49,340 nucleotides of DNA from an uncultured Candidatus Saccharibacteria bacterium (GTDB lineage Bacteria; Patescibacteriota; Saccharimonadia; Saccharimonadales; CAYUUR01). The notes under the pieces are model-generated. The model searched no databases. It worked only from the letters and a program-made list of their open reading frames with translations, and was not told where the DNA came from. Shown here one piece after another: positions 33,007 to 33,646 of this stretch (positions within the stretch are counted from its first letter, which is position 1; every line of letters starts with the position of its first letter). Location: the NCBI GenBank assembly GCA_964448075.1, contig CAYUUR010000005.1:1-49340 (forward strand), given 5' to 3'. The translations under genes and the position numbers were made by a program.

Positions 33007-33035
33007 TTGTCAATAACAGAGGTATATGCTATGAT
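33007..33035 (+). promoter_or_regulatory. Promoter TTGTCA-17-TATGAT upstream of the tRNA-Lys locus
   Basis: The -35 is at 33007-33012 and the -10 at 33030-33035. It fires into the 18-nt tRNA 5' fragment, about 160 nt upstream of the intact tRNA. Confidence 0.5.
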
Positions 33036-33072
33036 TTGACGGTTATTTTTGTCCGCGATACCTAAGGTAGAC

Positions 33073-33090
33073 GGGCCAGTAGCTCAGCTG
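33073..33090 (+). pseudogene. 18-nt copy of the tRNA-Lys 5' end (acceptor plus D-stem), orphan fragment
   Basis: GGGCCAGTAGCTCAGCTG is identical to 33194-33211. Confidence 0.9.
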
Positions 33091-33193
33091 CCTGTTCGAG
33101 GCTTCAGCCGAGTAAAGTTATAAGCACCAGCTGCTCTAACGACTCAAACTGAACTTTCGCAGACAAGACAAGCTTGCACCTTTCATACATCAT

Positions 33194-33270
33194 GGGCCAG
33201 TAGCTCAGCTGGTTAGAGCACCTGCCTCTTAAGCAGGGTGTCGAGGGTTCGAGTCCCTCCTGGCCCTCCA
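33194..33270 (+). tRNA. tRNA-Lys (anticodon CUU), CCA encoded
   Basis: Manual cloverleaf: acceptor GGGCCAG/CTGGCCC, D arm GCTC-AGCTGGTTA-GAGC, anticodon arm CCTGC-CTCTTAA-GCAGG, T arm GAGGG-TTCGAGT-CCCTC. 77 nt. Confidence 0.9.
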
Positions 33271-33278
33271 TATAAAAT

Positions 33279-33303
33279 GCCTCACTACAAAGTGGGGCTT
33301 TTT
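33279..33303 (+). terminator. Intrinsic terminator after tRNA-Lys
   Basis: GCCTCAC-TACAAA-GTGGGGC followed by TTTTT. Confidence 0.7.
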
Positions 33304-33456
33304 ATATGACCGTTCAAGTGGGGCTCGAAGCCTCGGCAGTGTCGAGGGGGAGAACTGCCCGATGGCAGTTCGGACGGCAATCTTCTGATGAAAACTGGTT
33401 TTCAATCAAGAAGTTGCGGGGTCGCGGAACGTGACCGAGTCCCTCCTGGCCCTCCA
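33304..33456 (+). repeat. tRNA-end-bounded miniature element, copy A (153 nt), ending in a 21-nt copy of the tRNA-Lys 3' end
   Basis: 33436-33456 (CGAGTCCCTCCTGGCCCTCCA) is identical to 33250-33270. An internal hairpin GAACTGCC-CGAT-GGCAGTTC lies at 33352-33371. The element is homologous to copies X and Y. Confidence 0.75.
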
Positions 33457-33464
33457 ATTCATGA

Positions 33465-33486
33465 AGCTCCCTCTTGGGGGCTTTTT
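33465..33486 (+). terminator. Second intrinsic terminator, after the duplicated tRNA 3' end
   Basis: AGCTCCC-TCTT-GGGGGCT followed by TTTT. Confidence 0.65.
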
Positions 33487-33646
33487 GAATTGGAGAACTA
33501 GCGGCTTCGACCCTCGACACGCCTCAAAGGTGTTGAGGTGAAAACAGCCCGATGGCTGTTTGCAAGGAAACTTACTCCTCAAAACTTGTTTTGATGGATG
33601 TAATTTCGGGCCTGCCGAAGGTAGGTCGAGTCCCTGTCCGTCCGCC
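33487..33646 (+). repeat. tRNA-end-bounded miniature element, copy X (~160 nt), ending in a degenerate tRNA-like 3' segment
   Basis: Hairpin AAACAGCC-CGAT-GGCTGTTT at 33542-33561. It shares the blocks GGTGAAAAC, TTTGCAAG and GGGCCTGCCGAAGGTAGGTCGAGTCCCT with copy Y. Confidence 0.7.

Follow-up and report, generated by a model that had tools for sequence, protein, structure and literature searches.

The question raised by this locus is what kind of element has built up behind a tRNA-Lys gene in a 49,340-nucleotide (nt) stretch of contig CAYUUR010000005.1 from an uncultured Candidatus Saccharibacteria bacterium (this whole stretch is referred to here as the window). A preliminary description of the DNA had singled out two tandem elements downstream of tRNA-Lys, A and X, together with a related copy, Y, near the window end, and had read them either as gene-less integrative units or as structured RNAs with a tRNA-like 3' end. 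We found that A, X, and Y are three copies of one undescribed family of three-hairpin modules (~88-95 nt; "family A", with at least three subfamilies), each lodged within the T-loop of an additional, nonfunctional, partial tRNA copy. The reading that we favor, with a probability of roughly 0.45, is that the resulting units are small nonautonomous cassettes whose recombination, at the 3' end or T-loop of the tRNA, depends on an enzyme encoded elsewhere.

When A, X, and the reverse complement of Y were aligned, column identity was 74%. A covariance model returned exactly three copies in the window, at 33342-33445 (113.8 bits), 33532-33636 (106.8 bits), and 49157-49261 on the minus strand (99.7 bits), and 25 strong copies (24 distinct sequences) over all loci and contigs fetched for comparison, which include Logan contigs and carry L numbers below. 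The consensus of ten aligned copies consists of a closing stem and three hairpins, P3, P4, and P5, and RNAalifold detected compensatory double changes in 22 of the 38 pairs among these ten sequences. More specifically, in the 24 distinct copies 92.3% of cells form a standard pair, compared with 70.8% after shuffling (0/500 shuffles as high), changes on both sides affect 27 of 38 pairs (20.3 shuffled), and the covariation score is 0.552 versus 0.186 for shuffled alignments and at most 0.107 when pairing partners are slid. The paired columns hold 62 G.U combinations versus only 7 A.C, an imbalance indicating that the fold belongs to the tRNA-sense strand, either as RNA or as single-stranded DNA. 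The hairpin GAACTGCC/GGCAGTTC, for which compensatory changes had been reported previously, corresponds to P3 and is supported across the family. A second helix proposed at the same time (TTGAGG/CCTCAA) does not stand, because across the family it pairs in 48.3% of cells versus 48.0% after shuffling; its bases belong to the T-stem 5' half and P4.

The closing stem of the module is itself the T-stem of a tRNA. In every real copy, the module sits between the T-stem 5' half on one side and the T-loop 3' part plus T-stem 3' half on the other, replacing nt 54-55 (T54-T55), and its flanks match the neighboring intact tRNA. Elements of ~155 nt had been proposed; their conserved part is only the ~90-nt module within the partial tRNA copy. 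Host tRNAs represent at least 11 species, namely, Lys-CTT, Lys-TTT, Met, Leu (three anticodons), Pro, Arg (two anticodons), Gln, and Gly, and the host genomes are mostly Candidatus Saccharibacteria metagenome-assembled genomes (MAGs). Downstream-type units, to which all three window copies belong, follow the order intact tRNA, terminator, leader, 9 to 17 nt of variable loop plus the T-stem 5' half, module, and nt 56-76 with CCA; in those comparisons that are in register, their tails equal the tRNA at 17 to 21 of 21 positions. In the window units, the terminator is bidirectional, and a short turn separates the antisense leader from sense nt 44-53. Upstream-type units (L012, L024, L011, L005, and L013) instead consist of a promoter flank, tRNA nt 1-53, the module, and a few T-loop nucleotides ahead of the intact tRNA, so that the host copy is a 3'-truncated tRNA with its full 5' part; 20 to 61 nt of that 5' part were matched at four of the five loci, and in L024 the tRNA promoter flank is duplicated. 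In L028 (220-400), the module interrupts the T-loop of a second, full-length copy of tRNA-Gln. This copy agrees on its 5' side at 52/52 positions with an intact tRNA-Gln that lies 4.3 kb away; it retains intact acceptor, D, and anticodon arms and has a promoter-like TATAAT upstream, and CCA is not encoded. An intact tRNA was present near every copy for which this could be checked within the contig ends (at a distance of 4.3 kb in one case), and module and tRNA share the same orientation in nearly all inspected loci, with one L014 copy being opposite.

A few copies depart from these arrangements. At L016:7040-7210, the P3-P4 part is tandemly duplicated before a single P5 and is fused to the first ~24 nt of tRNA-Gly. 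At L007:2950-3150, on a contig binned as Burkholderiaceae, a family-A module (95.7 bits) follows the anticodon-stem 5' strand of a tRNA-like 5' part, reflecting either a mis-binned contig of the candidate phyla radiation (CPR) or a wider host range. In L011, the "intact" tRNA-Arg(CCT) that follows a three-unit array (3545-3619) has a poor T-stem (AGGGG/CCGTC) and may be chimeric or unusual.

In the window, the tRNA-Lys locus (plus strand) starts with a sigma-70-like promoter of the tRNA-Lys transcription unit (TTGTCA-17-TATGAT; 33007-33035), which is invariant across four related loci. Next come an exact sense copy of tRNA-Lys nt 1-18, i.e., the "orphan" 5' fragment (33073-33090; repeat finder), a degenerate sense copy of the tRNA T-arm (33094-33112; by reading of the sequence), and an antisense copy of about nt 19-38, covering the D-arm 3' side and the anticodon-stem 5' side (33121-33140; 20 nt, 80% complementary). 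The intact tRNA-Lys(CTT), with CCA encoded, occupies 33194-33270 (ARAGORN; Rfam, 72.2 bits), and is followed by terminator 1, a palindromic hairpin of A-tract, stem, and T-tract (33271-33314; stem at 33279-33298). Unit A then comprises an antisense copy of tRNA-Lys nt ~68 to 45 with no module inside, which we call a mirror arm (33315-33338), an exact 10-nt sense copy of nt 44-53, i.e., variable loop plus T-stem 5' half (33339-33348; repeat finder), module A of subfamily I, whose P3, P4, and P5 stand in place of T54-T55 (33349-33435), and a tail that exactly matches nt 56-76 including CCA (33436-33456). The tRNA 3' end and this tail form an exact 21-nt direct repeat (33250-33270 and 33436-33456), and the 21-mer found chance matches in 0/100 shuffles. 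Terminator 2 (33457-33490; stem at 33468-33480) leads into unit X, in which a decayed mirror arm beginning with TGG, the antisense of CCA (33491-33520; antisense nt 76 to 44), includes 11 nt that are the exact reverse complement of 33238-33248. It precedes sense nt ~45-53 (GTGTTGAGG; 33530-33538), module X of subfamily II (33539-33626, scored by the covariance model as above), and a degenerate tail that is identical to tRNA-Lys nt 56-76 at 14/21 positions (67%; 33627-33647).

The analyses thus agree with the preliminary description on the promoter, the exact 18-nt 5' copy, the intact tRNA-Lys, and the exact 21-nt 3' copy, and X does end in a degenerate tRNA-like end. Terminator-like hairpins exist at 33279-33298 and 33468-33480 as had been described, yet none was detected after X. 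The 103 nt before the tRNA, which had been regarded as unrelated sequence, hold the antisense tRNA piece at 33121-33140 and form part of a conserved leader (see below). The imperfect inverted repeat noted around the tRNA (33097-33109 and 33322-33335) is present, and arises because 33315-33338 is an antisense T-arm copy and 33094-33112, by reading, a degenerate sense copy. No promoter was detected 5' of A, X, or Y in a promoter scan of the window.

Unit Y lies at the other end of the window, on the minus strand. Positions 49334-49340 are the final 7 nt (TGTACCA) of a tRNA, the body of which falls outside the window, and Logan contig L018, which reaches 22 nt past the window end (...CGGGGGTTCGAATCCCTCCCGGTGTACCA), gives the order tRNA 3' end, terminator, and then Y, identifying Y as a downstream-type unit. 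A bidirectional terminator, flagged on both strands (49299-49333), separates this tRNA from a mirror arm that begins with TGG and is antisense to the upstream tRNA 3' half (49269-49298; 14 nt, 93% complementary to the T-arm). The T-stem 5' half (49259-49255) and module Y (49254-49167; family A, subfamily II) together span 49167-49259 and yield the 99.7-bit match, and the tail (49146-49166) ends in CCA and, together with the T before it, equals the upstream tRNA 3' end at 18/22 positions. Y had rightly been described as a homologous copy at 49146-49300, although its strand is minus and it, too, follows a tRNA and terminator.

In downstream-type units, the leader copies the 3' half of the adjacent tRNA in antisense, running from TGG back to ~nt 44. 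This match was significant in nine units (p of 0.003 or less versus shuffles): it covers 28/32 nt in L017a, and in unit A it scores 28 compared with 11.4 for shuffled sequence, with 0/300 shuffles scoring as high for either A or X. Likewise, a 48-nt inverted repeat is centered on the loop of terminator 1 (33239-33286 versus 33291-33338; 75% complementary), and a 20-nt inverted repeat is centered on terminator 2. The module is absent from every antisense arm, and for that reason the leader of a whole unit pairs, in the predicted fold, with both the tail and the T-stem 5' half, while P3, P4, and P5 branch off. In the predicted fold of a circularized unit, ~75% of bases are paired, with z-scores of -5 to -6.6. 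What the mirror arms suggest is either that replication folded back at the palindromic terminator or that a folded single strand serves as an attachment site. An acceptor-like pairing of leader and tail was considered and rejected, in that RNAalifold gave no consensus for it on a MAFFT alignment; leader and tail do pair in single-sequence folds, which follows from the leader being a mirror copy.

Comparison with close relatives revealed how such units change. The strain represented by L004 is 92.5% identical to the window across the flanking region. In it, terminator 2 directly follows the tRNA-Lys, and the 186-bp unit A is missing, the gap falling exactly between the 21-nt repeats. Identity between the two strains is 97% from the promoter through the tRNA and 98% over terminator 2, leader, and T-stem 5' half (2/106 positions differ), and falls to about 70-71% between module X and the L004 module, with changes that are mostly compensated; beyond the module, the two are not alignable. 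The drop from 98% to 71% sits at the first base of the module. Downstream, L004 carries an APH-family gene (by reading of its translation), where the window has other genes. The L004 module is 87% identical to one at tRNA-Gln and 80% identical to one at tRNA-Leu, module A is 84% identical to a module at tRNA-Pro in L012, and identities among modules at the 11 or more different tRNAs amount to 75-87%. Arrays also mix subfamilies, with I preceding II in the window and II preceding I in L017. Judged from these alignments, the data show that module relatedness is independent of tRNA identity and locus orthology, and that close strains gain, lose, and replace units at fixed junctions.

In more distant relatives, the tRNA-Lys locus remains syntenic with a DUF5684 gene. 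The orthologous tRNA-Lys sites of L035 and L036 (60% protein identity) hold one unit of a different family, family B, and those of L032 and L033 (64% protein identity) have neither a family-A module nor a tail repeat, with a possible decayed mirror arm by eye. Contig breaks at 33221, 3238, and 49362 (Logan contigs L001-3, L030, and L018), inside or at tRNA genes, were rejected as evidence of mobility, because the checkable ones (33221 and 3238) lie ~31 nt into a tRNA that co-occurring genomes share, as a k=31 assembly graph would produce.

The region upstream of tRNA-Lys behaves differently from the units. The promoter, the sense copy of nt 1-18, and the antisense D-arm/anticodon-stem block (AGCACCAGNTGCTCTAAC) are kept in all four related loci as a leader of ~150 nt (window 33007-33193, compared with L035:3752-4000 and L032:1974-2223), conserved among relatives whose neighboring protein is 60-96% identical. 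In this comparison the antisense copy spans nt ~17-30. The 5' copy tracks the local tRNA sequence, reading GGGCCAT in L032, and the leader is present at loci without a family-A module (a family-B unit in L035; no recognizable unit in L032). Because the leader is kept without units and its 5' copy follows the tRNA, it is an old constrained feature of tRNA-Lys and not a scar of A/X insertion. Thus, the orphan 5' fragment, formerly counted as part of a rearranged locus, belongs to a separate conserved leader, which could pair with the tRNA body.

Family A is not alone in this niche. Of 24 tRNAs in the fetched loci, 14 have similar 3'-end repeats, among them Ser, Asp, Arg, and a second Met, which had not been selected for the module. 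At these 14 tRNAs, the architecture is terminator, antisense 3' half, structured insert, and direct tRNA 3'-end repeat, with a spacing of mostly 110-240 nt; the repeat is exact at nine of them, and differs at 1 to 3 of 16 positions at the other five. Exact 3'-end repeats with other inserts were found at Ser, Asp, Arg, Leu, and Met tRNAs. Family B, apparently unrelated to family A and recognizable by the motif CAGGAGYTTRCTCCGA, lies in the T-loop of extra tRNA 3'-half copies at tRNA-Asp (L011:1500-1772), tRNA-Lys (L035:3447-3674), and tRNA-Met (L008:450-600). Units with still other inserts follow tRNA-Arg, -Ser, -Leu, and -Phe (L005:6178-6520, L013:1673-1860, L005:3427-3680, L010:4113-4250, and L016:7200-7420); all of them include a terminator and an antisense arm, and in most the 3' repeat at the end is exact or nearly so, with a degenerate tail at tRNA-Phe. 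Family A is one of several payloads with this common layout.

The distribution of the module was examined with a strict degenerate pattern derived from the shared hairpin. A scan of 185,579 species genomes (one per species) gave 13 loci, several with multiple copies, of which 10 are labeled Candidatus Saccharibacteria, 1 is labeled Parcubacteria, and 2 are apparently chance coding matches; the same approach yielded 10 loci in metagenomes. Further copies therefore exist, the real ones are all linked to tRNAs, covariation is strong, and the loci of relatives are not identical, so that none of the outcomes named beforehand as refuting the preliminary description occurred. Rfam 15 contains no family that covers A, X, or Y at gathering thresholds, and even at E values up to 10 the only hits were chance matches of microRNA models, one to the last 8 nt of A plus the terminator and one to the terminator upstream of Y, in keeping with the earlier statement that the sequence matches no recognized RNA family. 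Nor did the literature searched contain a published description of the module or of its T-loop anatomy.

Several known RNA classes were considered and set aside. With regard to tRNA itself (RF00005), ARAGORN and Rfam call only the intact tRNA-Lys and tRNA-Glu of the window, and A, X, and Y keep only nt ~44-53 and 56-76. A transfer-messenger RNA is countered by the lack of an ARAGORN call, of an Rfam match at E up to 10, and of a tag-like reading frame common to A and X. The resemblance to Y RNA or other tRNA-like RNAs suggested by a GGATTCGAC-like motif on the 5' side reflects an antisense T-loop. A hammerhead or other self-cleaving ribozyme was suggested by CUGAUGA, which occurs in A only, not in X, Y, or other copies, and there was no Rfam ribozyme match. 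Group I introns of tRNAs have a P3-P8 catalytic core and usually interrupt the anticodon loop; the module, at ~90 nt and in the T-loop, has no Rfam intron match and is smaller than the 200 nt or more that the core needs.

How, then, might the units have arisen? Under the cassette reading, gene-less units would enter or be exchanged by recombination at the tRNA 3' end or T-loop, with the enzyme supplied from elsewhere. Configurations that left no intact tRNA would be lost, and the survival of only those that preserve one would explain the varied partial direct and mirror duplications. Selection would maintain the fold of the module's tRNA-sense strand, whether as RNA co-transcribed with the tRNA or as single-stranded DNA, and a circularized unit would be largely self-paired, with a stem that copies the tRNA 3' half and might serve as a folded attachment site. 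The earlier integrative-unit proposal is in keeping with the unit A indel between 21-nt repeats, the breakpoint at the module edge, the turnover of families, and the repeats at other tRNAs, although it, like the structured-RNA proposal, had missed the nested anatomy. A number of observations weigh against the cassette reading, however. No recombinase, transposase, integrase, reverse transcriptase, or homing endonuclease gene lies next to the units examined (on incomplete MAG contigs); no module match was found among viral contigs, phages, and plasmids, leaving no known vehicle or autonomous parent; and no empty-versus-filled pair was found for the module alone. The indel of A could be a deletion between the 21-nt repeats and not an insertion, any role of the mirror arm is putative, and a bipartite "splint", in which an antisense segment bridges both module flanks, was rejected, being significant only for the window copies, L004, and L005. 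Finally, unpaired module nucleotides are conserved, one G.U pair in P5 is nearly invariant, the fold of module X is perfect despite its decayed tail, and in L008 the stems of two terminators differ, by reading, through compensated changes; all of these features are more readily expected of a functional RNA than of a mere DNA site.

The same features are part of the support for a host-beneficial noncoding RNA, which we consider possible though doubtful. According to this explanation, the T-stem acts as the closing helix of an RNA that rides in the tRNA transcription unit, is made by read-through past the tRNA terminator or, in the upstream type, as part of the tRNA leader, and is freed or stabilized by tRNA-processing enzymes, the flanks being leftovers of its copy origin. 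It accounts well for the RNA-like covariation with its G.U excess, the co-orientation with the tRNA, the terminator that ends each downstream-type unit, the duplicated promoter flank of L024, and the folds of X and Y that are intact while their tails have decayed. In contrast, a host function fits poorly with a patchy occurrence of 13 loci under the strict pattern, with relatives that have the same tRNA-Lys locus but no module, with several copies of different subfamilies per positive locus, with flank architectures that differ among loci, and with the lack of a promoter before A, X, or Y; unrelated insert families share the niche, and module relatedness is uncoupled from host and locus. The structured-RNA proposal made previously stands to the extent that the covariation is strong and strand-specific, but it had placed the elements downstream of tRNAs, and the module also occurs upstream of tRNAs and within a full-length tRNA copy. 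A further explanation, that the units are relics of classical attachment (att) sites, i.e., P/P' arms plus the core of a tyrosine-integrase element (a prophage, an integrative and conjugative element, or a cis-mobilizable element [CIME]) whose interior was lost, would make the module mere arm DNA and seems quite unlikely to us. The direct repeats of the tRNA 3' end do begin in the T-loop, as with the "T-loop sublocation" of integrases such as that of mycobacteriophage Ms6 (PMC1762012), the ~190-bp unit length is close to a lambda-type attP, the indel of unit A is bounded by repeats, and accessory genes (APH kinases and, by their N-termini, HAD-like hydrolases) lie beside or between units. Yet strand-specific compensatory pairing is not expected of arm DNA, and integrase arms are specific to one element and one site, unlike a module that is found at 75-87% identity at 11 or more tRNAs. 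Moreover, the module splits the T-stem 5' half from the T-loop 3' part so that no contiguous core site remains, the upstream and full-length types cannot be attR, and neither a full-size element nor an integrase lies beside any copy examined.

Passive scars of rearrangement, in which fold-back or template-switch replication errors at the palindromic terminator and T-arm hairpin would have produced inverted and direct partial triplications, with the module as a functionless hairpin-rich filler spread by those errors and served by no dedicated machinery, are in our view very unlikely. They would be consistent with the mirror duplication centered on the terminator loop, with the palindromic junctions of upstream-type units (e.g., TCGAATC-C-GATTCGA), with the variable flank architectures, and with the lack of an enzyme linked to the units; they do not predict a sequence and fold conserved across CPR lineages with unpaired bases kept and 27/38 pairs covarying, an identical insertion point in every copy examined, distinct subfamilies, or antisense arms that never carry the module. 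A T-loop intron spliced out to give a working tRNA is extremely improbable. The L028 copy of tRNA-Gln, with its other arms intact, would suit it, but it was rejected on the ground that T54-T55 would not be regained upon excision (subfamily I has G at position 54); in addition, no bulge-helix-bulge motif was seen at the junctions, Rfam reports no group I core, and most host copies lack half of the tRNA and lie near an intact one. Beyond the cassette reading itself, we regard it as unlikely, if worth stating, that the units belong to a new class of CPR mobile cassettes that work as folded single strands, with several unrelated payload families sharing one scheme; the three-hairpin branch at the T-loop position would then be a recognition or catalytic module of a unit circularized at the tRNA 3'-end repeat. 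If this were true, an integron-like or viroid-like layer of gene-less and small-gene cassettes would exist at tRNA genes.

The units share features with several known systems. Like tRNA-targeting integrative elements and CIMEs, they have 3'-end repeats that start in the T-loop, preserve the tRNA, accrete in tandem, vary in presence between strains, and are associated with accessory genes; unlike these, they are only ~190 bp long (~190 nt each in the window, bounded by direct repeats of the tRNA 3' end), lack genes and a linked integrase, covary on a single strand, use at least 11 tRNAs, split the T-arm with the module, and also occur in upstream and full-length arrangements. Of the hallmarks of CIMEs, direct repeats from the tRNA 3' end were found at unit A, and a cognate integrase, whether carried by the element itself or by a full-size relative with the same att arms, was not found beside the copies examined (incomplete MAG contigs). 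Integron attC and CTX-phage attP(+) are recombination sites that act as folded single strands. As in the units, structure is kept over sequence, one strand folds, and arrays sometimes include small cargo genes, and the inverted arms of the units could likewise rebuild a duplex that imitates the chromosomal target. Unit arms differ in copying the tRNA 3' half and in bearing a three-hairpin branch at the T-loop, with no intI or Xer gene linked. Single-strand-specific folding is present, but by inspection the T-loop GTTCGAR does not fit GTTRRRY; attC R and L boxes were not seen, although no search aimed at attC was made, and intI is absent from the annotated genes of the window.

Miniature inverted-repeat transposable elements (MITEs), repetitive extragenic palindromes (REPs) and their mosaic arrays (BIMEs), and IS200/IS605-derived palindrome-associated transposable elements (PATEs) are small structured nonautonomous repeats. 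The units are similar to them in being short, noncoding, hairpin-rich, multicopy, patchy, and gene-less, with oriented insertion at a defined target, and dissimilar in that the target is a T-loop with partial tRNA duplications, the end hairpins P3 and P5 do not resemble one another, and there is no known transposase that matches. Neither terminal inverted repeats nor a target-site duplication was seen in the module, and the window genes include no transposase. As for tRNA introns, bacterial group I introns lie in the anticodon loop, and archaeal bulge-helix-bulge introns occur at noncanonical positions that include the T-arm. These introns share with the module a structured insert at a precise loop position and one insert family in several tRNA species; the module differs in being too small for a group I core, in not restoring T54-Psi55, and in having host copies that are mostly partial and lie beside an intact gene. 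Fold-back inverted duplication or triplication by short palindromes is known from eukaryotic and human genomics. It resembles the sense/antisense/sense order of the tRNA 3' half centered on a palindromic terminator; in contrast, the units recur at many tRNAs and genomes, and their last sense copy invariably carries a conserved structured insert.

These units represent a new structured element in Saccharibacteria and other CPR bacteria, whose tiny genomes have little room for noncoding DNA. Their anatomy implies that the most conserved sequence common to all tRNA genes is targeted in a novel manner, or else that small RNAs are expressed from tRNA operons by a novel route. As the units mark sites at which accessory genes differ between close strains, they may help to explain gene flux in these episymbionts. 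For annotation, it is relevant that the loci hold tRNA fragments that gene finders miss or miscall.

With regard to neighboring genes, three different APH-family phosphotransferase genes lie near units (window 34526-35449 and 48210-49103; L004:2-538). The tail of Y ends 42 nt upstream of such a gene, the L004 module lies just upstream of another, and X is 0.9 kb from the third. In L008 and L017, genes that resemble HAD hydrolases by their N-termini lie between units, and small accessory genes seem to gather at unit sites. A general linkage to APH kinase genes was rejected, being seen for Y, for the L004 module, and loosely for X, and absent at other loci.

The window encodes a single recombinase, a large serine recombinase (569 aa; 1524-3233, plus strand), the gene for which overlaps with its 3' end the 3' part of tRNA-Glu (3193-3267, minus strand). 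We found no evidence that it is the cassette enzyme, given its tRNA-Glu site and its distance of 30 kb from the units. A Replic_Relax protein is encoded nearby at 474-1226, and positions 474-3267 probably belong to a mobile element that integrated at tRNA-Glu and continues beyond the window start. Elsewhere in the window, paralogues with an LPG_synthase_C domain (aminoacyl-tRNA-dependent transferases; 8589-9488 and 13018-13992) flank, with other genes between, a pyridoxal-dependent ornithine/DAP/arginine decarboxylase (11897-13021), and 16708-23808 encodes a 2366-aa protein with PA14, GLEYA, and RHS/YD-repeat Pfam hits that is syntenic in L035.

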